Source: Sedimentisphaerales bacterium (GTDB taxonomy: Bacteria > Planctomycetota > Phycisphaerae > Sedimentisphaerales > Anaerobacaceae). From it: 64,000 nucleotides of DNA. This document shows positions 15,555 through 28,380 of the stretch, piece after piece. The stretch spans positions 4,928,001-4,992,000 of the forward strand of contig OY970194.1 in assembly GCA_963708075.1 (NCBI GenBank), written 5' to 3'. Position numbers and translations under genes: made by a program. The notes beneath the pieces were generated by a model. That model was given only the letters and a program-made list of their open reading frames with translations. It was not told where the DNA came from and ran no database searches. Position 1 is the first letter of the stretch. The number at the start of each line of letters is the position of its first letter.

Positions 15555-16597
15555 CGCCGTTAAGTGACGCCCAAAAGCAGTTGCTGTTTGATTACTCTTT
15601 TGGCCTGACGTCCGACCGTGACACCTCGGAAGCGGAAGACCTGCTATCCACAAGTCCCGAGGCCGCACAACTCTGCGACCTGCTCCAATCAGCCCTGTCG
15701 CCCCTCGAAAGCGTGGACCCGGAGCCCTGTCCCGACGACCTCGCCGAGCGGACCATCCAGCGACTCAAGGACCAAGCCCGACTCGCCGTCGGCCCCGCCC
15801 GCCTCGAAGAATTACTCTCCGCCGAGCCCGCCCCGGCCGTCCCGCTCCGTGTCCCCTTCTGGCACAACTGGAGCGAGATCGCCGCAATCGCCGCCGTCCT
15901 GCTTCTATTCATCAGCATCCTGATGCCCGCCCTCGGCCTGGCCCGCCAGCGTCACTGGCAGTCCCAGTGCCAGTCCCAGCACGGCGACATCTACGCCGGC
16001 CTGGCCAACTACGTCACCGACCACGACGGCCAATTCCCGACCGTCCCCATGGCCCAGGGCGGACCCTGGTGGAAGGTCGGCACCCAGGGCCCCGAGAACC
16101 AGTCCAACACCCGCCGGGCATGGCTCCTCGTCAAGCAGGGCTATGTCCCCCTGCCCGCCTTCACCTGCCCCGCCCGCCGCGACACCGGCCGCCCCGACCC
16201 CAAGTCCGTCCAGGTCGCCCGCTACAACGATTTCCCCGCCCGCTCCTTCATGCACTACAGCGTCCGCATCGACGGCCCGCAGACCCCCGAGCCCACCCTC
16301 GGCCGAAAGAAAGTCTTCCTCGCAGACCTCAACCCGCTCTCCGAGGAATTCCCGCGCGACATCTCGACCATCCCGAGCATCGAGCTGCGTGACAGCCTCC
16401 TGAAGGCCAACAGCCGCAACCACAACGGCCGCGGCCAGAACGTCCTGCTCTGTGACGGCTCCGTCGAATTCTGCCGAACCCGCCGCACCAGCACCTCCGA
16501 CGACGACATCTTCACGCTCCGAACGATGTCCACCGGCCAAAAAGTCCACGGCGTAGAACGCCCCGCCTCCGAAGACGACACCTTCGTCGGACCGTAA
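15551..16597 (+). CDS. Putative anti-sigma factor with TM helix and DUF1559-like / H-X9-DG C-terminal domain
   Basis: ATGA overlap with the sigma gene; N-terminal LLFDY..G...C..L; TM followed by PALGLARQ....C; NHNGRGQNVLLCDGSV. Confidence 0.75.
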   Translation: MTPLSDAQKQLLFDYSFGLTSDRDTSEAEDLLSTSPEAAQLCDLLQSALSPLESVDPEPCPDDLAERTIQRLKDQARLAVGPARLEELLSAEPAPAVPLRVPFWHNWSEIAAIAAVLLLFISILMPALGLARQRHWQSQCQSQHGDIYAGLANYVTDHDGQFPTVPMAQGGPWWKVGTQGPENQSNTRRAWLLVKQGYVPLPAFTCPARRDTGRPDPKSVQVARYNDFPARSFMHYSVRIDGPQTPEPTLGRKKVFLADLNPLSEEFPRDISTIPSIELRDSLLKANSRNHNGRGQNVLLCDGSVEFCRTRRTSTSDDDIFTLRTMSTGQKVHGVERPASEDDTFVGP

Positions 16598-16738
16598 CGC
16601 GACCGCCCACGCCCGAGCTCCCAATCCGCAATCCGAAATCAACATTCCGCAATCGGAACGTCCCCGCTCCGCCCTCCCACTTCAAACATCAAACCTCAAA
16701 CTTCACACTTCCTTTCCCATTCCGCACTCCAAACGGCC

Positions 16739-16810
16739 ATGTCCACTGGCCAAAAAGTCCGCGGCACAGAGCGCCCGTCCTCCGACACGGATACCTTTGT
16801 GGCCCCCTGA
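16739..16810 (+). pseudogene. Diverged duplicate of the last 72 nt (16526-16597) of the anti-sigma gene
   Basis: Encodes MSTGQKVRGTERPSSDTDTFVAP* versus MSTGQKVHGVERPASEDDTFVGP*; 54/72 nt identical by manual alignment. Confidence 0.85.
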
Positions 16811-17036
16811 AGGGGTGGCGCATGGCCGAAGGTAAGAGGGTAAGAACGTAGGAAGCGGGACGCCCGGGAAACGGCTCAGGGCTTTGAATTAACGATTGAA
16901 AGGTCCACGCAGCTCGTTAGAATGAGATGCCAGACAAGGATCGCAAGGAGAAGGTCACCTCCGTGGCACGCTCCGCGATGACAGACTAATGGTGCATCGA
17001 TGCGCATGTGGAAGCCTAAGCAGGAGGCTGGATAGT

Positions 17037-18701
17037 TTGAAGCACGTGGAGTTTTTACGGGAGAATGGATCGTGCGTGGCCGAGCACGGCAGGAAGAGCA
17101 TTCTGACGCGTACGCAGGGGTCATTCTACACGCATCCGACCATAGGACATCATCTAATATCTGCGATCTTGGATGTAGATCGACCCTTCGTTGAGAAAGG
17201 ATCGTTTTCAATAATCGACCCCTTCTGTGGGGACGGTCGCCTTGTATGCTGGCTCTTGGACGCAATTGCGAGAGGCGGTGCAAGGGTATCCAGTCAGGTA
17301 ACCGTCGAGCTTTGGGATTGCGATGCGAGCGCACTCGCGATTGCACGGAAACAAGTCAAGGCAACGGCATTATCACGCAATATACCTCTCGCATTGGTTG
17401 CTCGCCATTGTGATGCGTTTACCAGGGGACCCCGCTATCACGGCAGATATGACATAGTAGTAACCAATCCGCCGTGGGATGTTCTCAAGCCTGATCGCAG
17501 GGAACTCCTGGATTTAGACACGAGCGCAAATGCCGGGTACATTCGGAACTTGGGGGATCAGCAAGCCTATCTTGAGAGCCAGTACCCCGTCTCAAGACCC
17601 GCTCAACGATTCTCGCGTTGGGGCCTGAACCTCGCTAGGTGTGGAACAGAACTGGCGTTCCGACTCGCGTCACCAAACGGTATCGTAGGCATCGTTTCTC
17701 CAGCGTCACTTCTCGCAGACCAAGTTTCCGAGCAACTCAGAAGGTGGATCTTGTGTAATCACTTGATCACAGATGTCGGTTACTTCCCCGCTGAGTGTCG
17801 ACTATTCGAAGGTGTGGACCAACCTGCGATCACGCTCGTTGCTCTCTGCAAGCAACCCGAGATTCCCACGGTCTTCTCCGCAATAGTGACGAAGTACACA
17901 CGTGATGCGCAGGTTAGAGAGCGAGGCAGAGTGAAGGTTCCACTCTCAGCAGTGGCGAATATGGGTCATATTCTCCCGGTGCATTTCTCCGGTGCTGCAG
18001 TGGATTTCTTGTCATACTGGTCAAGATTTCCTTCTTTCTTCCAGATTGAAAGGGCCGCAGACGGGTTCTATGCGGGCCGAGAACTAGATGAAACGCGATC
18101 GGAAACGTACCTATCGGATCGTGGAAGGTATTCGTTCATAAAAGGTCGAATGGTAGATCGATTCAGGCTCCTGAACGGATCGGTCAGGTATGTCAGAACT
18201 GAGTTAGTACGAATTCCAAAGTCCGTCGAATTTACCAGGGTGGCTTGGAGAGATGTGTCCCGTCCCACGCAGAAGCGCAGGATGCAGGCCACGCTCATCC
18301 CTCCCGGGTGCGTGACTGGCAATTCGCTGAACATCTTATATTTTTCTCCGCCCGCAGATAACAGATTGTATGCACTTCTCGGCATCATGAACTCGCTGGT
18401 ATTTGAGTTCCAACTACGGACGTTCTCCGCAACAGCTCATGTATCCCTAGGGTCAGTCCGAAAGGTGCACCTTCCATGGCCACTCTCGTCAAACCGTTTC
18501 TCAAGAATAGCGGCGATCTGCGAGCGGTGCCTGCAAGGGGATCAACGAAGTGAAGTTGCCATGGAGATCTATGTTGCACGCCTGTATGGCCTCAGCCGGC
18601 GTAGATTTGAGAGCATCCTCGGCTCGTTCGACAAGCTCAGCGAAACGGAGCGTGGCGAGTTGCTCCAACGCGACACTTGGGATGCACTTGGAGATGAATA
18701 A
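17037..18701 (+). CDS. N6-adenine DNA methyltransferase (gamma class, Alw26I/Eco31I-type adenine MTase-like); ORF open from 16989
   Basis: GSFYT, IIDPFCGDG (motif I), DIVVTNPPW (motif IV), LFEGVDQ, C-terminal TRD with LLGIMNSLV. AGGAGG precedes TTG at 17037. Visibly lower GC than the flanks. Confidence 0.88.
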   Translation: MKHVEFLRENGSCVAEHGRKSILTRTQGSFYTHPTIGHHLISAILDVDRPFVEKGSFSIIDPFCGDGRLVCWLLDAIARGGARVSSQVTVELWDCDASALAIARKQVKATALSRNIPLALVARHCDAFTRGPRYHGRYDIVVTNPPWDVLKPDRRELLDLDTSANAGYIRNLGDQQAYLESQYPVSRPAQRFSRWGLNLARCGTELAFRLASPNGIVGIVSPASLLADQVSEQLRRWILCNHLITDVGYFPAECRLFEGVDQPAITLVALCKQPEIPTVFSAIVTKYTRDAQVRERGRVKVPLSAVANMGHILPVHFSGAAVDFLSYWSRFPSFFQIERAADGFYAGRELDETRSETYLSDRGRYSFIKGRMVDRFRLLNGSVRYVRTELVRIPKSVEFTRVAWRDVSRPTQKRRMQATLIPPGCVTGNSLNILYFSPPADNRLYALLGIMNSLVFEFQLRTFSATAHVSLGSVRKVHLPWPLSSNRFSRIAAICERCLQGDQRSEVAMEIYVARLYGLSRRRFESILGSFDKLSETERGELLQRDTWDALGDE

Positions 18702-18712
18702 TAGGTGACCTG

Positions 18713-19921
18713 GTGATACCGAACCATTATAGCCATAAGCTGAGCGCCCTTGACATTGAGATGGTGAAGGCCGTGCCGCCTGGAGGAAACTGGAAGGATA
18801 TACCAGTCACGATTCCATCGCAGCGACTGCGCCAGATAAGAGAAAGCTATGCAAAAGGTGGCGGAAGTCGGTCAACGTACTATGGCCGTCTGCATCCAGA
18901 TCGCCCATCATATACTATCAACACGTGCTTCAATCGACCGGGGAATGGCTGCTTCATTCACTATAACATGCGCGATAGCCAGCACCGTCTGATTTCTCAA
19001 CGCGAGGCTGCCAGACTTCAGAGTTTCCCAGATTCTGTGGAGTTCTTCGGAAGTAAGGCATCGATAAACAAACAGATAGGCAACGCCGTTCCCCCTTTAC
19101 TTGCATTTCAAATAGCGAGTTCCTTTGGCGAGCCAGGTCGTTTTGTTGATCTGTTCTGTGGCGCTGGTGGTCTAAGCCTAGGTTTTGTGTGGGCCAACTG
19201 GAGGCCCGTCCTAGGCGCCGACCTCGAACCATCGTTCCTTCAGACGTACTCGGCTGCCATTGATTCCAATGTTGTCTGTGGGGACATAACGCGCACATCT
19301 GTATTCCAGGAGATCATTGACCGCTCGAGACGCCTTACATCGCATACTTCGGATCGCTTCTTCGTACTTGGAGGACCTCCATGTCAAGGCTTCTCGACGG
19401 CTGGCAATCGGCGATCGATGAGCGACGGACGAAATCTCCTCTATGTAGAGTACTGTCGATCGCTCAAATTGCTACAGCCGGATGGCTTCCTATTTGAGAA
19501 CGTACTTGGACTCACCAATATGGAAGGAGGGAGGGTTTTAGCGACCATCGTCCGAATGCTTGAAGACTTAGACTATAACGTGTCTGTATGGCGTCTCAAA
19601 GCCGAGGACTTCGGAATACCACAGCGACGCCAGAGAATATTTGTGGTTGGTGCTCGGGGCTCTGTGACAATGCGCGCAGGCCCCCCGCCTGTGACAACGT
19701 TCAGTGCTCAAGTGAACACGGACCCCCTTCTGCCTCGCGTAGCCACAGTCAGGGAGGCTCTCGATGACCTTCCACCAATAGGAGCCGGCGAAGATGGCAG
19801 TGTGCTCGCCTATCGGTCAAAACCGAGCACTCCTTACGTGCAGTTCGTCAGAGGCGTCATTTCACCCTGTGAGTACATAGAACAGGTTAGGAGGCATCCC
19901 GCAAATGATACGCGTCACTAA
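18713..19921 (+). CDS. Circularly permuted C5-cytosine DNA methyltransferase (TRD-IX-X before I-VIII)
   Basis: REAARLQSFPD (IX) and QIGNAVPP (X) precede DLFCGAGG (I), GGPPCQGFS (IV), FENV (VI) and PQRRQR (VIII). Confidence 0.92.
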   Translation: MIPNHYSHKLSALDIEMVKAVPPGGNWKDIPVTIPSQRLRQIRESYAKGGGSRSTYYGRLHPDRPSYTINTCFNRPGNGCFIHYNMRDSQHRLISQREAARLQSFPDSVEFFGSKASINKQIGNAVPPLLAFQIASSFGEPGRFVDLFCGAGGLSLGFVWANWRPVLGADLEPSFLQTYSAAIDSNVVCGDITRTSVFQEIIDRSRRLTSHTSDRFFVLGGPPCQGFSTAGNRRSMSDGRNLLYVEYCRSLKLLQPDGFLFENVLGLTNMEGGRVLATIVRMLEDLDYNVSVWRLKAEDFGIPQRRQRIFVVGARGSVTMRAGPPPVTTFSAQVNTDPLLPRVATVREALDDLPPIGAGEDGSVLAYRSKPSTPYVQFVRGVISPCEYIEQVRRHPANDTRH

Positions 19922-21218
19922 TCCGGCGGCATACGCGACATCCTTGCGCCTCTTGGGTGCGCATAGGGCTAATCTCTCTCGGGACTTCAGGGGTAGATTT
20001 ATCCAATTATTTTTGGGTCTCAAGTACTACCAGAACGAGATTCCGAGCATGTTTGCCAACCAGTTCGTGTCGACTGAAACCCTCCAGACTCTTCTCGACG
20101 ATCTGTACGCAAAAGGATCTCGCCCACTTGATGATTGCGTTTTGATGCTCTTCAATAATGGATATAAACCACGAACTGGTCTGACCGGCCAGGGGAGAAG
20201 GGCACCGCAGAATACTTGGCGCAACAACTTCCACCTGCAGAAGGGCGTTGGATGTTATGCTCCTCCCCAAGACCTTTCGAGCGCGGTCTTCCTGAATCAA
20301 TCACGTGTCAGGTGCCGCTATTTGCAGCCTGCACAAAGCGGTGCTCTAGCAAACGCAACCTGCCGACTCTGTCCACGAGGCGCAAGGTACAGAAATGAAG
20401 ACCATAGAAAGTGGCTGCGGATAGACCCGGGTGGAGCTGGATTCGCTGTGGTTGATCTTCTGAACACGGACAATTTCATTCCCTACATCGCACCAAATGG
20501 AAACCGCATCCCCATTCTACCCCTCATCATTGCCTTGTACCATGATGCTCTTCCTGGCCTCGCTCTAGCATCGCGCCAAGAACTGGATGTTGATGACTTC
20601 GCAGATGATTTCAACTTTTCCCCGCAGGAGGTAGTGGCCTACTTTGACGGCGACCCAGCACATCCTGGAAACCAGAGCCTATTGCGCACCTTTGCCGACA
20701 TGTCGTATAGAGACCTTGGCTCAGGTATGGTCCTCCCTCGGGCGAGGCGCCGTGCGCTCGCTCTTACAGCGTGTCCAAGGGTCCGTGTCTTGGCTCCAAC
20801 TCTCTCGGGGACGCCAGCCCCGCCGCCGGGCGTGAACACAGGTTGGGAAGCAGAGCAGTTTGTGATGAGCGCTCTGATTCAGGCTCAATGCACAGTCTTT
20901 AATGTCTCCCGCCAGCGACTAGGGTATGATCTCCTGATCAAGAGAGGACAGCGGACATGGTATGTAGACGTGAAAAGTTCACTCGGCTACTGCAGTCCCT
21001 CGTTGACGCAGCGAGAGTGGGAACAAGCGAGAGCTCACGGTGATGCTTATGTCCTCGCAATTATCGAGAATTTCAATCCCGTGGCTTCAAATACCATCTA
21101 CTGGATTCCCGACCCTTTTGGAACTTGCACAGCAAGGGAATCATCTACTGTAAGCTACGGCATAGCTCGCACCTCTTGGGTGGTACACGCGGTTTCGCTC
21201 AACTCGATTTGGCGTTAG
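19905..21218 (+). CDS. Putative restriction endonuclease with C-terminal DUF3883/NOV_C-like PD-(D/E)XK domain
   Basis: GWEAEQFV...VS....GYDL.......VDVKSS......LT..EW..A....Y pattern; overlaps the MTase stop; N-terminus unrecognised, with several Cys. Confidence 0.7.
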   Translation: MIRVTNPAAYATSLRLLGAHRANLSRDFRGRFIQLFLGLKYYQNEIPSMFANQFVSTETLQTLLDDLYAKGSRPLDDCVLMLFNNGYKPRTGLTGQGRRAPQNTWRNNFHLQKGVGCYAPPQDLSSAVFLNQSRVRCRYLQPAQSGALANATCRLCPRGARYRNEDHRKWLRIDPGGAGFAVVDLLNTDNFIPYIAPNGNRIPILPLIIALYHDALPGLALASRQELDVDDFADDFNFSPQEVVAYFDGDPAHPGNQSLLRTFADMSYRDLGSGMVLPRARRRALALTACPRVRVLAPTLSGTPAPPPGVNTGWEAEQFVMSALIQAQCTVFNVSRQRLGYDLLIKRGQRTWYVDVKSSLGYCSPSLTQREWEQARAHGDAYVLAIIENFNPVASNTIYWIPDPFGTCTARESSTVSYGIARTSWVVHAVSLNSIWR

Positions 21219-21220
21219 AG

Positions 21221-21700
21221 CTAACCAGGGCGCTCGCACCGGGCCTTGGCTCTGGATGCTACGACCTTCCCGATGGCCTTAGCAACTAGCTGTGGCGAAG
21301 AGAGGATATCAGTCTCCCACACCCGGACAACCTTCCAGCCCAGTCTCGTTAGGCGTTTGTCTGTTCGCCGATCACGTTCCATGTTCGAGCGGATCTTTTC
21401 ACACCAATACTGGGCGTTGGTTCCTTCCATCAGCTTGCTTCTAAGTGTCCGCCAATCTCTTCCATGCCAGAAGTCGCCGTCGCAGAACACGACTGTGCGC
21501 GCCGCTATGAACACGACATCCGGCGTGCCAGGCACATTCCTGGCATTCTTGCGAAATCGCAATCCCATCTTGTGAAGTGTGCTTCGCAGTAGCACCTCAG
21601 CCTTGGTGTTCACCGCACGGTTGGCACGCTTAGCGCGTGAGCTTGCGAGCGATGCCGGCTTGAGTCCAATGAAAGAAGGGACGCGGCTTTTTGCTCTCAT
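21221..21700 (-). CDS. vsr: Very short patch repair endonuclease
   Basis: NTKAE..LR..L...GLRFR, PGTPDVVF, VFCDGDFWHG, YW..KI..N..RD and GWKVVRVWE motifs. Confidence 0.92.
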   Translation of the reverse strand: MRAKSRVPSFIGLKPASLASSRAKRANRAVNTKAEVLLRSTLHKMGLRFRKNARNVPGTPDVVFIAARTVVFCDGDFWHGRDWRTLRSKLMEGTNAQYWCEKIRSNMERDRRTDKRLTRLGWKVVRVWETDILSSPQLVAKAIGKVVASRAKARCERPG

Positions 21701-21954
21701 TTCCTACCCATTCGCAAGACTCTCTTGCACATCTCTGCACGCTGTGGCAACTCACTTGGCCTCGACCTTGACCAGCCAGTCTATCGCTCGTGCGTGGGAT
21801 TCTTCAATCATGGTTTCAGCCTTCGTAGCCACTCAATATCCCGCTATCACTAGCATGCTATCGCTTAGCAGAGCCGGTGTCCAGAGGGGCAACGGCGAAT
21901 GCCGAACAGTCATTTTCGGCGAGGGGGCGTGGGCGGAGCCGGTGAGAGGGAAAG

Positions 21955-22250
21955 GGAAGTTTGATTTCTGATTTTTGATGTTTGATTTGAAAACGGGGGA
22001 CGGGGGGACGCCCGAATGCGGAGTGCGGATTTCGGAATGCGGAATGGGACAAGAAATGTGAAGTTTGATGTTTGAAGTGGGAAGGCGGAGGTTGGGGTGC
22101 TCTGCGTCTTGGCGTCTCTGCGTGAGAGGATCAGTTGGCAGTTGCCAGTAGTCGGTTGCCGGTTGGGGACCTGGATTCCCGCCTTCGCGGGAATGACATG
22201 CACAAGGCAGTTTTCGCGTGGTTCGCGTGCTTCGCGGTTGAGGAGCAGTT
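21955..22250. repeat. Mosaic of heptamer tandem repeats and palindromic repeats
   Basis: TTTGA-based and GCGGAAT-based heptamers plus GGATTCCCGCCTTCGCGGGAATGAC. Confidence 0.7.
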
Positions 22251-22255
22251 GTCGG

Positions 22256-23014
22256 TCAGCGGTTCTTTTTCCATCGGGTCTTGCGGCCGTCGGTCCATTG
22301 GGGGCCATTAGGGAACTCGGCGTAGAGCGCCTGGCGGCGCTCGGGGGGCCATTCGTCGGGGAAGTTGAGGCGGGCGAATTCCCGGAAATTCAGGACGGCG
22401 GCACGGTCGTAGGCGCGGGCGGCCTCCTCCTCGATGTCGTAATAGCCGAGCGAGTGCGAGCGGCCGTCACACCAGATTCTCGCGAACCATTTGCGGGTCG
22501 GCTTGTGGTACTGGACGCCTTTGAAACGGGAGGCGCCGCCGATCATCTTGGCCTTGTTGCGGTGGTTCTCCTGGTGGGTGCAGTTGCGCAGGTTGCCGCG
22601 GAGGTTGTCCAGGCCGTTGCCGTCCGTGTGGTCGCAGACCCTGCCGGGAGGCGTCTGCATGATCTCGCGGTGCATGCGGATCGTTTTGCCGTTTTCGTGG
22701 CGGGCGGCGTAGCGACCGTCGACCAGGTGCCACTTGTACTTACTGAGCCACTCGTAGTCGGCGGCGTCGACGTAGGCGTAGAGGCCGCCGGCGACGGGGA
22801 TTCGCTTGACGGAGGCGTCGGCAAGGTCGGGGTCGGCGGGCCTGGCGCGGTAGTTGCGGCAGACGGGGCCCAGGGGCGTCGGCCGGGTCCGGCCGGGCGA
22901 GTCGGGGTGGTTGGCGCAGACCGGCCGGCTCGGAACGCCCGACGACAGGCTCCACATCCACTGGCACCGGTCCCAAGAGGCGAACACGCAACTGTGACAG
23001 GTCGGCTGGGCCAT
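22256..23014 (-). CDS. HNH endonuclease with AP2 DNA-binding domain and Cys-rich N-terminus
   Basis: MHREIM....CDHTDGNGLDNLRGNLR (HNH); SRFKGV....KWFARI......LGYY..EEEAARAYD.AA...F.EFARLNF (AP2); GGAG RBS. Confidence 0.88.
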   Translation of the reverse strand: MAQPTCHSCVFASWDRCQWMWSLSSGVPSRPVCANHPDSPGRTRPTPLGPVCRNYRARPADPDLADASVKRIPVAGGLYAYVDAADYEWLSKYKWHLVDGRYAARHENGKTIRMHREIMQTPPGRVCDHTDGNGLDNLRGNLRNCTHQENHRNKAKMIGGASRFKGVQYHKPTRKWFARIWCDGRSHSLGYYDIEEEAARAYDRAAVLNFREFARLNFPDEWPPERRQALYAEFPNGPQWTDGRKTRWKKNR

Positions 23015-24345: not shown

Positions 24346-25698
24346 ATGTCTATGTGCCCTGTGGGCGGAGGAGAAGACTCCTGTCATGTCGATACCTCCG
24401 TGTGCACGGGCGACGACGAGCCTCCGCTCATAGCCGTCGCACCCGCCGCGATTGAGACCATGACTTGCCGGCCCAACGGATGGGATGATTGGCGCTGGCA
24501 AATGGCCCATCGCATTCGAACCCCTCAACAACTGTCTGCGGCCTTTCCTCGCTGGGTGGGAGATCCAAACCTCGCTTCTGTGGCGGCCAAGTATCCCATG
24601 GCGATCACGCCCTACTACGTGTCGCTGATTCGCCGCGCGGATAGCTCCGACCCCATCTTCCAGATGTGCGTGCCGCAGATTCAGGAACTGACGGACCCGC
24701 CGTTCCTGAGCCCTGATCCCCTGGAGGAGTGTCATGACATGCCGGTCCCCGGGATGGTCCATCGGTACCCGGACCGCGCGCTGGTCATCGCGACGACCAT
24801 GTGCTCCGCGTATTGCCGGCATTGCACGCGCAAGCGAATCGCCGGAACGCGGGAGACCAGCATCACGAAACGGCGTCTCGAGCAGATTGCCGCCTACCTC
24901 AAGGAGCACCCGCAGATCAGCGACGTGATCGTCTCGGGCGGGGACCCGCTGACGATGAGCACGGAGAATCTTGAGATGGTGCTGTCGCGACTGCGCCAGG
25001 TCCCGTCGGTGCAGATCATCCGCATCGGCACGCGGGTGCCGGTGGTGCTGCCCCAGCGAATCACGGATGAGCTGTGCCAGATGCTGCGCAAGTACCACCC
25101 CCTGTGGATCAACACGCATTTCAACCATCCTCAGGAACTGACGCCGGAAGCGATACAGGCCTGCAATCGGCTCGCCGACGTCGGCATTCCGCTGGGGAAC
25201 CAGTCCGTGCTGCTGCGCGGCGTGAACGATCGCCCACAGATCATCGAGCAGCTCTGCCGCGGCCTGGTGCGCATGCGGGTCAGACCCTACTACATGTATC
25301 AGTGCGACCTCGTTCGCGGCGTGGAGCACTTCCGTACTCCGCTGTCGCGCGGCATGGAGATCATGGAGTATCTGCGCGGCCGGCTCAGCGGTCTGGCGAT
25401 TCCCACCTTCGTGGTGGACGCCCCGCACGGCGGCGGCAAGATCCCCGTCCTGCCGACCTACGTCGTCACGCAAAGTCCGACGCACACGGTGCTGAGGAAC
25501 TACGAGGGGATGCTGATCGCCTATCCCGAGCCGCAGGATCGTTGTCAAGGTCAGTGCCCGACGCCGCAGGAGGAATCCGCGCCGGGGGTCTGGGAACTGA
25601 CGGCGGGACGGTACAGCCGCATCCAGCCTGAGAAGACTCTCCGCCAGGCCAGACGCCAGACGTGCTGCGCATCGGACGAGTCTGTGGGGGATTTCTAA
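24346..25698 (+). CDS. kamA: KamA-family radical SAM/PLP aminomutase (lysine 2,3-aminomutase-like)
   Basis: WDDWRWQ, ITPYY, HRYPDR, CSAYCRHCTR, SGGDPL, RIGTR, HFNHP, NQSVLL.GVND, PYY and GGGKIP motifs. Confidence 0.92.
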   Translation: MSMCPVGGGEDSCHVDTSVCTGDDEPPLIAVAPAAIETMTCRPNGWDDWRWQMAHRIRTPQQLSAAFPRWVGDPNLASVAAKYPMAITPYYVSLIRRADSSDPIFQMCVPQIQELTDPPFLSPDPLEECHDMPVPGMVHRYPDRALVIATTMCSAYCRHCTRKRIAGTRETSITKRRLEQIAAYLKEHPQISDVIVSGGDPLTMSTENLEMVLSRLRQVPSVQIIRIGTRVPVVLPQRITDELCQMLRKYHPLWINTHFNHPQELTPEAIQACNRLADVGIPLGNQSVLLRGVNDRPQIIEQLCRGLVRMRVRPYYMYQCDLVRGVEHFRTPLSRGMEIMEYLRGRLSGLAIPTFVVDAPHGGGKIPVLPTYVVTQSPTHTVLRNYEGMLIAYPEPQDRCQGQCPTPQEESAPGVWELTAGRYSRIQPEKTLRQARRQTCCASDESVGDF

Positions 25699-25702
25699 GC
25701 AA

Positions 25703-26767
25703 ATGAGCAAGACATCACGCGGGACCAGCCCCGATCCTCGCCGGCGAGAGGACGCAGTGACGATCGGGCTGGTCTACGATTTGAGGGACGACTACCTCGC
25801 CGAAGGGTACACCGAAGAGCAAGTGGCCGAGTTCGACTCGGCGGCGACCATTGGCTGTCTGGAGCAGGCGCTGCGGTCTCTCGGCCACACGACCGAGCGC
25901 ATCGGCAACGGCCTGGCTCTTGCCAGGCAGCTCGCCTGCGGCAAGCGGTGGGACCTGGTCTTCAACATTGCCGAGGGCCTGACCGGACGCAGCCGAGAGG
26001 CCCAGGTGCCGGCCCTGTTGGAAATGTATGGGATTTCCTATACCTTCTCGGATCCTCTGGTCTCTGCGCTGACGTTGGACAAGGCGATGACCAAGCGGGT
26101 GATCCAGTCGGCGGGCCTGCATACGCCTCGTTTCGCGGTGGTGACATCGCCCGAGGAGGCAGAGTCCGTCGATCTCGGATTTCCGCTGTTCGCCAAGCCG
26201 CTGGCCGAGGGGACGGGCAAGGGAGTCGATGAGCATTCACGCATCGAATCAAGCGAGGCCTTGAAGAGGGTCTGCATTCGTTTGCTGGAGCGATTCTGCC
26301 AACCGGTTCTCGTGGAGGAGTACCTGCCCGGCCGGGAGTTCACTACAGCCGTCCTGGGGACGGGCCGTGATGCTGCGGTTCTGGGGACCATGGAGATCGC
26401 CATCCGCGAGAACGCTCCGGCCACCGATTATTCCTACGAGGTGAAGGAACTCTGCGAGCAGTGGGTCCACTACTTCCCGATGCCGCACGGGGCCCTGCGC
26501 GATCAGGTCGAAGACCTGGCCTTGAGGGCTTACCGGGTGCTGGAGTGTCGTGACACCGGACGCGTGGATATCCGTCTGGACGCCGGGGGCCGACCTGCAT
26601 TCATCGAGATCAATCCCCTGCCGGGATTGCATCCGACGCATTCGGATCTCCCGATGATCGCCACCCAGGAGGGCATGGCCTACGAGACGTTGATCGGCCG
26701 GATTGTTCAGAGTGCTCTTTCACACCGGGAGTCGGTAGCGTGCCACGCCAAAAAATCAGCGTCCTGA
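25703..26767 (+). CDS. D-Ala-D-Ala ligase-like ATP-grasp enzyme
   Basis: VFNIAEG, LDKAMTK, KPLAEGTGKG, EEYLPGREFT, RVDIR and EINPLPG motifs. Confidence 0.88.
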   Translation: MSKTSRGTSPDPRRREDAVTIGLVYDLRDDYLAEGYTEEQVAEFDSAATIGCLEQALRSLGHTTERIGNGLALARQLACGKRWDLVFNIAEGLTGRSREAQVPALLEMYGISYTFSDPLVSALTLDKAMTKRVIQSAGLHTPRFAVVTSPEEAESVDLGFPLFAKPLAEGTGKGVDEHSRIESSEALKRVCIRLLERFCQPVLVEEYLPGREFTTAVLGTGRDAAVLGTMEIAIRENAPATDYSYEVKELCEQWVHYFPMPHGALRDQVEDLALRAYRVLECRDTGRVDIRLDAGGRPAFIEINPLPGLHPTHSDLPMIATQEGMAYETLIGRIVQSALSHRESVACHAKKSAS

Positions 26768-28380
26768 TCCTGTACAACAGTCCACAGCCGTCCGGTCATG
26801 GCCAAGTCTTTGCTGAGAGCGAGGCGGGTGTTCTGGCCGAAGCAGGGGCCGTTGGCTCGGCTCTGGACAAGCTGCGGATTCCGCACCGGGCGGTAGGCGT
26901 GCGATGGTTCAGCGAGTTGCCCGCCGTCCTGGCTGCCGCGGATGAGCCGGTGGTCTTCAATCTCGTCGAAGGCTTCTGGACGGACGCGGGACAGGCAACC
27001 CTGGTTCCGACCGTCATACACAGCTTCGGCAAGGCCTGCACGGGCAATGATACGAAGGGTCTGCTCTTGTCACTCGACAAATGGCAGAGCAAAGCCCTGC
27101 TTCGGGCCGCAGGGCTTCCTACGCCTCAAGGTCTGATCGTCCAGCCGGGGCAACGCATCCCGGCGAAGGACCTGTTCGACGGTCCTTATATCGTCAAACC
27201 TGTGCAGACCGATGCCAGTGAAGGAATCGATAAGGCCAGCATCGTCCACAAACGCGGCAAGGCCCTGCACGAGGTCGTCCGTCGCATCCACGACCAACTG
27301 GCCCAGCCGGCATTGATCGAGCAGTACATCGACGGACGGGAGTTGAATATCTCCGTAATTTGTCGCGACGGCGAGCCGCAGGTGTTGCCTCTGGCGGAGA
27401 TTGACTTCAGTGCCTTTGAAGCCGGTCGCCCTCGCATCGTGGGATACGAGGCCAAATGGCTTGCGGACAGCTTCGAGTACAACCACACTCCTCGAATCAT
27501 CCCCGCGCCGCTGCCCAAGCGGCTGACTGAGCAGATCCGGGAACTGGCCGTGGCTGCCTGCCGGACACTCGCCTGCCTCGACTATTGCCGCGTGGACTTT
27601 CGCCTCGACAAGGCCAGCCGGCCCTACATCCTGGAGGTCAACGCCAATCCGGATATCTCGCCGGATGCCGGGTTTGCCGCAGCGTTGCAGGCCGCCGGGA
27701 TCTCTTACGAAACCTTCGTGAGACTGAGTATCGACAACGCCCTGGCCCGCGTGCCTCATGAGACTTCACGGCCGACTCGTCCGCGACGGACTCGCACGGC
27801 GAAGGCCCCCGGCGCCCCGGCCATTGAGATCCGCTGGTGCCGGCCCGAGGATCGCCAGGTGGTGCTATCCTTCCTGGCGGAAACGGGTTTCTTCCAGCCC
27901 GGGGAAATCGACATTGCCCGCGAGGTGCTGGATGCGGCGTTGGCCGACGGACCCCAAGGGCATTACCAGTCATTTGTCGCCTGCGTAGAGAGTTCGCAGT
28001 TGTCAGTTCCCAGTTCACAGTCGAGCCACAGCGAGAGCCAACTGTCAACTGACAACCGACAACCGACAACTGCCCCTGAAACGGTCGGCTGGATCTGTTA
28101 TGGCCCGACGCCCTGCACGATCGGGACCTTCGACATCTACTGGATTGGCGTAGCTCCTGCTTGTCAGGGACGAGGCATCGGTCGTGCACTCACGGTCTTT
28201 GCCGAGCAGGCGATTGCTCAGCGAGGCGGCCGGTTGCTGGTCATCGAGACGTCGAGCCGTGAAACGTACCACCCGACCCGGCAATTCTATTTGTCGATGG
28301 GTTACCGTGAGGCAGCACGCATAGCCGACTTCTACGGACCGGCAGACCACAAAGTTGTTCTCGTCAAGGAAGTTGGGTAG
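26740..28380 (+). CDS. D-Ala-D-Ala ligase-like ATP-grasp enzyme fused to a C-terminal GNAT acetyltransferase
   Basis: VFNLVEG, KPV..DASEGI, IDGRE, RVDFRL and EVNANPD; then YWIGV.P..QGRGIG, IETSS and FY..MGY. Confidence 0.88.
   Translation: MPRQKISVLILYNSPQPSGHGQVFAESEAGVLAEAGAVGSALDKLRIPHRAVGVRWFSELPAVLAAADEPVVFNLVEGFWTDAGQATLVPTVIHSFGKACTGNDTKGLLLSLDKWQSKALLRAAGLPTPQGLIVQPGQRIPAKDLFDGPYIVKPVQTDASEGIDKASIVHKRGKALHEVVRRIHDQLAQPALIEQYIDGRELNISVICRDGEPQVLPLAEIDFSAFEAGRPRIVGYEAKWLADSFEYNHTPRIIPAPLPKRLTEQIRELAVAACRTLACLDYCRVDFRLDKASRPYILEVNANPDISPDAGFAAALQAAGISYETFVRLSIDNALARVPHETSRPTRPRRTRTAKAPGAPAIEIRWCRPEDRQVVLSFLAETGFFQPGEIDIAREVLDAALADGPQGHYQSFVACVESSQLSVPSSQSSHSESQLSTDNRQPTTAPETVGWICYGPTPCTIGTFDIYWIGVAPACQGRGIGRALTVFAEQAIAQRGGRLLVIETSSRETYHPTRQFYLSMGYREAARIADFYGPADHKVVLVKEVG

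Follow-up and report, generated by a model that had tools for sequence, protein, structure and literature searches.

A candidate type II restriction-modification system for GGTCTC that joins an Eco31I/BsaI-type methylase pair to a nuclease of a likely new family in a Sedimentisphaerales bacterium

We analyzed a 64,000-nucleotide stretch of DNA (hereafter the window; positions 4,928,001 to 4,992,000 of contig OY970194.1, assembly GCA_963708075.1) from a Sedimentisphaerales bacterium, in which two DNA methylase genes (M1 and M2), a putative restriction endonuclease gene (gene 3), and a vsr gene lie side by side. We consider it probable that M1, M2, and gene 3 form a type II, FokI-like restriction-modification (R-M) system for GGTCTC whose nuclease family is absent from the libraries and papers that we searched, and gene 3 likely represents a new restriction-endonuclease family for a known site. 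In the proposed mechanism, the Eco31I/BsaI-type methylase pair would mark GGTCTC with 5-methylcytosine (m5C) on one strand and N6-methyladenine (m6A) on the other, while the unrelated two-domain gene 3 nuclease would cut unmethylated GGTCTC, its N-terminal domain reading the site via an NxWRNN motif and its small Hjc-like domains pairing to make one double-strand break, as in FokI. The features are as follows, in window coordinates.

17037..18701, plus strand: M1, N6-adenine DNA methyltransferase of the Alw26I/Eco31I/Esp3I family, 554 amino acids (aa) from a TTG start, with a TIGR02987 match
18713..19921, plus strand: M2, circularly permuted C5-cytosine methyltransferase (order TRD-IX-X-I...VIII, TRD being the target recognition domain), 402 aa, PF00145 at E 7.6e-60
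19905..21218, plus strand: gene 3, putative restriction endonuclease, 437 aa, with N-terminal domain, linker, and NOV_C/DUF3883 nuclease domain
19905..20705, plus strand: N-terminal domain of gene 3 (residues 1-267), from model and conservation, with NxWRNN and Cys117/Cys137/Cys153 invariant
20691..20795, plus strand: variable linker of gene 3 (residues about 263-297), with low identity and low predicted local distance difference test (pLDDT) values
20820..21209, plus strand: PD-(D/E)XK domain of gene 3, Hjc-like (residues 306-435), with D342, D355, K357, and the predicted dimer interface
21221..21700, minus strand: vsr, very-short-patch repair endonuclease, accessory, 159 aa, TIGR00632 at 128.2 bits (cut-off 97.85)
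16900..21950, no strand: low-GC island enclosing all four genes, from the GC profile

All four open reading frames (ORFs) at 17037-21700 are intact, and the GC content of the block (53.5% vs 61.8% in the remaining window) agrees with an initial annotation that had described a compact lower-GC operon of four genes; vsr, however, lies on the minus strand, convergent with M1, M2, and gene 3, and thus falls outside the operon. M1 most likely starts at TTG 17037, which is preceded by AGGAGG and is where its homologs begin, and the first 17 bp of gene 3 are also the last 17 bp of M2. M1 scores 389.3 bits against TIGR02987 (cut-off 353.5), and M2 has TRD-IX-X ahead of motif I, the motif order of the natural permuted enzymes in the available part of the S5 Dataset of PMC5944983; the pair thus belongs, as initially annotated, to the Alw26I/Eco31I/Esp3I group of m6A and permuted m5C methylases.

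Gene 3 is tied to these methylases by its setting in many genomes. Of 29 genome loci of its family, 20 show M1 and M2 immediately before the nuclease gene in the same orientation (four as a single fused gene, two frameshifted), four have M2 and then a contig end before M1, one (L023) has the pair 2.5 kb away, one (L017) has no methylase, and three are uninformative. Nuclease and methylases therefore occur together in 25 of the 26 informative loci, L017 being the exception, which is the stable linkage of a type II R-M system; a plasmid locus and a viral-contig locus of the family also carry the pair. Within the DNA examined per locus, none of the 24 directly linked loci showed an Eco31I-type nuclease by tblastn or ORF clustering. 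The host genome likewise gave no match to an Eco31I-type nuclease, but no control genome gave a signal in that search either. When M2 was used for a reverse search of metagenome and viral contigs, the best 36 of at least 160 loci included at least 12 with the Eco31I-type motif, nine of them with an HNH nuclease, one with the gene 3 family, and two with neither. Two viral contigs (L114:3950-5179 and L117:3869-5194) carry a lone Eco31I-type m5C methylase with no M1 or nuclease within 4 kb, and these likely protect phages from GGTCTC cutters. Vsr had been counted as a member of the system; it adjoins the pair in only one of the 29 genome loci, with a further weak match at a distance of about 3 kb and an occurrence at one plasmid locus, and was rejected as a core gene. 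Where present, it would be an optional partner that repairs T:G mismatches arising from deaminated m5C.

The nuclease initially described as an orphan belongs to a widespread family. Of 8000 candidates scored, 209 were homologs at E 0.001 or better; among the matches listed, 119 share 50-63% identity over 86-100% of gene 3 and are labeled only as hypothetical, DUF3883/NO VEIN, or Holliday-resolvase-like proteins. A profile search with the family returned 54 representatives at E 1e-30 or better, and its hosts span Acidobacteriota, Verrucomicrobiota, Pseudomonadota, Bacteroidota, Chloroflexota, Cyanobacteriota, and one archaeal (Thermoplasmata) bin. Mobile DNA yielded one viral contig and one plasmid; GenBank phages gave no match, nor did E. 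coli genomes searched by the DNA of one homolog. Longer fused forms (766-2185 aa) were absent from 3758 candidates, which is weak evidence, and the ESM Atlas held no match at 0.9 or more.

None of the reference libraries placed gene 3 in a characterized family. Pfam matched only NOV_C/DUF3883 at residues 318-391 (E 4e-9, above cut-off), NCBIfam (including the HNH endonuclease family TIGR02986) and PDB sequences gave no match, and PADLOC returned only the NOV_C tail of its Tiamat and Hma models. Further, 14 diverse family members matched none of the PADLOC restriction-endonuclease models, while Eco31I-type control nucleases strongly matched REase_II (PDLC03469). Pfam, NCBIfam, PADLOC, and the PDB thus yielded no full-length characterized homolog, with REBASE outside this search, and an unclassified nuclease joined to this methylase pair, as initially proposed, is what the linked loci bear out. 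A profile of gene 3 compared with 19 Eco31I-family nucleases gave a probability of 0.3%, i.e., no detectable homology; a relationship to the Eco31I HNH nuclease was rejected on this basis, in agreement with the initial impression that gene 3 is unlike the endonuclease of that group. The literature searched, which did not extend to subscription papers or REBASE, contained no paper on the gene 3 nuclease family or on the methylome of a carrier.

The recognition segments of the methylases point to a known site. In the available part of the PMC5944983 S5 alignment, the M2 segment before YYGR reads GGRTT in Alw26I, BsmAI, and BcoDI, GxVRTT in Esp3I and BsmBI, and GxGSRST in Eco31I and BsaI, and the GGGSRST of the window M2 places it with the last of these groups. 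The pattern G.GSRS[TS]YYGR, which in that part of the dataset is confined to the M2.Eco31I and M2.BsaI rows and missing from Alw26I, BsmAI, BcoDI, Esp3I, and BsmBI, was present in every M2 linked to the gene 3 family (22/22) or to close Eco31I-type nucleases (10/10), in the one found with both nucleases (1/1), in two of six unassigned ones, and in none of 18 linked to distant Eco31I-family nucleases. A WRDVSR...GNSL segment of M1 is similarly common to Eco31I-type M1 enzymes and absent from distant ones, and identity to the E. coli Eco31I-type enzymes is 34% for M1 and 50% for M2. Because both methylases carry Eco31I/BsaI recognition motifs and nest among Eco31I-type enzymes, their sequences predict the site GGTCTC, and the new specificity initially suggested was not upheld; M1 is predicted to methylate the A of GAGACC, and M2 to yield GGT(m5C)TC. 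In E. coli EC958, according to PMC4659465, M1 and M2 of EcoMI are identical to the Eco31I methylases, GAG(m6A)CC was seen by single-molecule real-time (SMRT) sequencing, and the nuclease gene lies on the opposite strand; in PMC12679398, both marks are reported in another E. coli.

A type II system with a shifted specificity, e.g., for a variant or degenerate site of the GTCTC group, seems to us quite unlikely. It would accommodate the two differences between the window M2 and M2.Eco31I in the second TRD segment (Y to C and H to F), a nuclease unrelated to Eco31I, and a distant relative of gene 3 that stands beside an Esp3I-like TRD at locus L039, but the group-diagnostic motifs of both methylases are those of Eco31I/BsaI, the Y-to-C change is also found in L023 beside an Eco31I-family nuclease, and the E. 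coli Eco31I-type enzymes nest among gene-3-linked ones.

This nesting was seen in quick trees of 57 M2 and 39 M1 rows, the M2 set leaving out partial or broken copies (L001, L011, L016, L024, L026, and L046) and one duplicate (L132). Gene-3-linked and Eco31I-linked methylases fell in one clade, with Shimodaira-Hasegawa-like approximate likelihood ratio test (SH-aLRT) values of 99 for M2 and 100 for M1, and the E. coli Eco31I-type pair (L037) grouped with several gene-3-linked pairs (98 for M2, 100 for M1). The L037 M2 is identical to that of L031, which by eye matches the M2.Eco31I row. The approximately unbiased (AU) test rejected a single clade of gene-3-linked enzymes for both M1 (p 0.0009; 21 vs 17 rows) and M2 (p 0.0037; 22 vs 28 rows, six unassigned dropped), and tip clades of the methylase trees recur in the nuclease tree. 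These trees, unrooted for this purpose, indicate that two unrelated nucleases have been swapped, in one direction or the other, on one methylase lineage.

The anatomy of gene 3 agrees with the initially described layout of an N-terminal part without a family match (about 265 aa), a linker, and a C-terminal nuclease domain, here NOV_C/DUF3883. The full-length model has a pLDDT of 85.7, with a confident N-terminal domain and disorder at residues 274-299 (pLDDT <50); mean identity is 14% in the linker vs 57-58% in the two domains, and the stretch N256-G313 varies from 48 to 70 residues in 55 homologs. In the C-terminal domain, which carries GYDL...VDVKSS, the catalytic motif is intact, with D342 and K357 in 55/55 homologs and D or E at position 355 in 55/55, and the best structural matches are archaeal Hjc resolvases (Hjc 2wcw, VIA Z 8.8, root-mean-square deviation 2.8 over 93 residues). 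DUF3883 is placed in the PD-(D/E)XK families in PMC3424549, and an archaeal survey (PMC10609329) presumes it to mark a group of type II nucleases. A homodimer model of two gene 3 copies with zinc scored 0.75 against 0.00 for the best control, on a scale whose mark 20 of 30 solved homodimers and one of 23 single chains attain (counts that hold only roughly for gene 3), and this score was possibly raised by likeness to solved Hjc dimers; contacts agreed by at least 56%, the partner pLDDT was at least 81, and the interface lay wholly in residues 312-436. We accordingly predict that the gene 3 nuclease cuts as a dimer. Its linker, long and variable, suggests that cutting would occur outside the site, perhaps at a loose distance and best with two sites.

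The N-terminal domain, modeled alone at a pLDDT of 95.7, had no Foldseek match; in VIA its best match reached Z 4.2, with none at Z 5 or more, and the top rows were nearly all winged-helix proteins. Searches detected no match to PUA, SRA, EVE, DUF3427, or type IV families. C117, C137, C153, and R106 are invariant in 117/117 sequences, H167 is present in 105, and the NxWRNN motif is invariant; the three Cys plus a His or Cys likely form a zinc site, and NxWRNN is likely a base-reading motif. On these models, the function of the domain is likely DNA recognition.

The domain also appears outside the gene 3 family. Distant relatives join it to HNH_2 (four proteins), to another nuclease-like tail (two), or, in one protein labeled by sequence reading, to a P-loop domain. 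At L039:651-5191, an N-terminal-domain relative with HNH, split by a frameshift but fused in P0249, is flanked by a permuted M2, whose TRD is Esp3I-like, on one side and by an m6A methylase resembling that of Alw26I on the other. This is a second undescribed nuclease arrangement and, as an independent case, supports a role of the N-terminal domain in reading GTCTC-group sites; its Esp3I-like TRD indicates that the domain family can likely change its target. We lean slightly toward a broader proposition: that the N-terminal domain is an undescribed, zinc-stabilized winged-helix reader whose recognition of GGTCTC evolved independently of BsaI/Eco31I and which has been swapped onto PD-(D/E)XK, HNH, and P-loop effectors, that the 437-aa enzyme offers a compact, unrelated counterpart to BsaI that cuts at a position of its own, and that the two unrelated nucleases were exchanged several times on one methylase lineage.

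We acknowledge that several observations weigh against a GGTCTC restriction system. In L017, from a 7.6-Mb genome (G001) of unstated completeness with no match to either methylase of this type, an intact gene 3 copy with a ribosome-binding site lies 35 bp behind lmuB of a Lamassu lmuA-lmuB pair (L017:3126-7317) and faces an R-M pair resembling type III. Without its methylases, an active enzyme cutting GGTCTC would be expected to harm such a cell, and this homolog has possibly been co-opted by Lamassu. L023 holds, beside one methylase pair, both a gene 3 family nuclease and a full Eco31I-family nuclease (TIGR02986, score 504.5), with an endonuclease III-like DNA glycosylase between the two nuclease types (L023:5983-12752), and is a possible intermediate of nuclease exchange. 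Both loci fit a silent or redundant restriction gene and also a methylase-independent nuclease. Distances in the nuclease and methylase trees are weakly correlated over 20 loci (rho 0.15, p 0.13 for M1; rho 0.21, p 0.049 for M2), the fold matches of the N-terminal domain are weak, none exceeding Z 4.2, modification-dependent enzymes can also contain winged-helix and DUF3883 domains, and the literature searched offered no activity or methylome data for any family member. The host genome shows a mild depletion of GGTCTC (observed/expected 0.83, rank 176 of 4096) and has the lowest value of 13 congeners both per Mb and relative to the reversed control word; the depletion is non-specific, in that the host also ranks lowest for CGTCTC relative to the control for that word, and GGTCTC values are lower still in several order-level relatives that lack the gene 3 nuclease.

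Part of this evidence would suit a modification-dependent (type IV) or independent defense nuclease, whose methylase neighbors shield the host or are mere neighbors. The intact orphan beside Lamassu in G001, the joint presence with an Eco31I-family nuclease in L023, the modularity of the N-terminal domain (HNH, the other nuclease-like tail, and P-loop partners), the DpnI winged helix among its weak fold matches (Z 3.2), and DUF3883 as the active cutter of modification-dependent YenY4I (PMC6765204) all lean that way. We nonetheless hold it unlikely: a type IV enzyme has no cognate protective methylase, and here methylases stand next to the nuclease in 25/26 informative loci, in 24 of which they immediately precede it in the same orientation, across many phyla; the two-strand methylase pair would be left without a nuclease to guard against; and the N-terminal domain matches no PUA, SRA, EVE, or type IV family. 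We find it highly improbable that gene 3 is a site-specific nicking or repair nuclease serving the methylases (e.g., at T:G in GGTCTC) and takes no part in restriction. That the small Hjc-like domain gives each chain a single active site, that most loci lack Vsr, and that the orphan in G001 is harmless would agree with such a role, but the window has its own Vsr, the predicted dimer would unite two active sites, and the methylase pair would again lack a nuclease partner. A type II system cutting GGTCTC remains our preferred reading.

The four-gene island is likely a horizontal import. GC at third codon positions (GC3) is 0.52-0.63 in the block vs 0.80-0.85 in two flanking host genes, and none of 40 relatives searched has a full-length gene 3 homolog, one having a weak tail match. 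The host gene upstream of the island is present in 21 of 23 congeners, and no R-M gene lies within 1.5 kb downstream of it in the 10 congeners with enough flank (11 fetched). Directly before the island there is a 91-bp second copy (71% identical) of the 3' end of that host gene (16526-16616 and 16739-16829), and 61-bp inverted repeats (82%) flank the island (16673-16733 and 22031-22091); these may be insertion relics or common host repeats. A promoter scan found four candidates vs 3.7 expected, i.e., chance level, and a search of sequencing runs listed no holder of RNA. Adjoining the island is an HNH_3 plus AP2 protein (22256-23014, minus strand) that is probably unrelated to the R-M system, and farther along (24346-28380, plus strand) lie three genes whose products resemble a lysine 2,3-aminomutase-type radical SAM enzyme and, in two cases, D-Ala-D-Ala ligases, the second of which seems to end in a tail like that of an acetyltransferase. 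The host genome (G000) also avoids other words, CAGCTG to an extreme degree (observed/expected 0.04) and TTTAAA (0.19), TTGCAA (0.32), CTCGAG (0.34), and GTCGAC (0.36) less so, which suggests long exposure to other restriction systems.

As a biological role, the restriction of foreign DNA proposed here is commonplace. Golden Gate cloning relies mainly on BsaI/Eco31I, and to our knowledge the sequenced GGTCTC cutters are all HNH enzymes of a single family. If our reading is true, an unrelated GGTCTC enzyme would clearly exemplify convergence in sequence recognition. It might serve as a new reagent that cuts differently, it would supply a DNA-binding domain that is separable and without a close solved structure, and it would give a function to a widespread family of "DUF3883/NO VEIN domain proteins" missed as restriction enzymes by PADLOC and NCBIfam.

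Among known systems, YenY4I and McaZI (DUF3427-DUF3883, modification-dependent) have the DUF3883/NOV_C catalytic domain in common with gene 3, which differs in having no detected PUA or DUF3427 reader and in its strict linkage to a methylase pair that looks cognate. Of Tiamat TmtA, whose models are 1300-1800 aa long, only the NOV_C tail matches gene 3 in PADLOC (E 1e-9 over ~100 residues). The architecture of gene 3 fits the type IIS plan, with a cut at a fixed distance being uncertain because linker length varies (48-70 residues). FokI pairs its catalytic domains to cut both strands, and FokI and BpuJI read DNA by winged helices (PMC2673415 and PMC12065111, respectively). Gene 3 resembles them in its two domains and linker, the predicted pairing of nuclease domains, and a weak winged-helix likeness, and differs in showing no sequence match and in the Cys-rich insertion of its N-terminal domain; neither enzyme is among the fold matches listed for gene 3, and a relation may still exist. 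Alw26I, BsmAI, and BcoDI (site GTCTC) and Esp3I and BsmBI (site CGTCTC) have methylases of the same families as the window, with different TRD motifs and HNH nucleases, and M.Alw26I and M.BsmAI are M1-M2 fusions, as in four gene-3-family loci. With Eco31I/BsaI, the window shares the m6A and permuted m5C methylases, the gene order, the recognition motifs, and the clade in both trees. The Eco31I nuclease is of the HNH type (listed as such in PMC2441816) and encoded on the opposite strand, whereas the window nuclease is a PD-(D/E)XK enzyme with an unclassified N-terminal domain, encoded on the same strand behind M2; because it lacks the HNH nuclease, the window system would stand outside the Eco31I/BsaI family while working alike.

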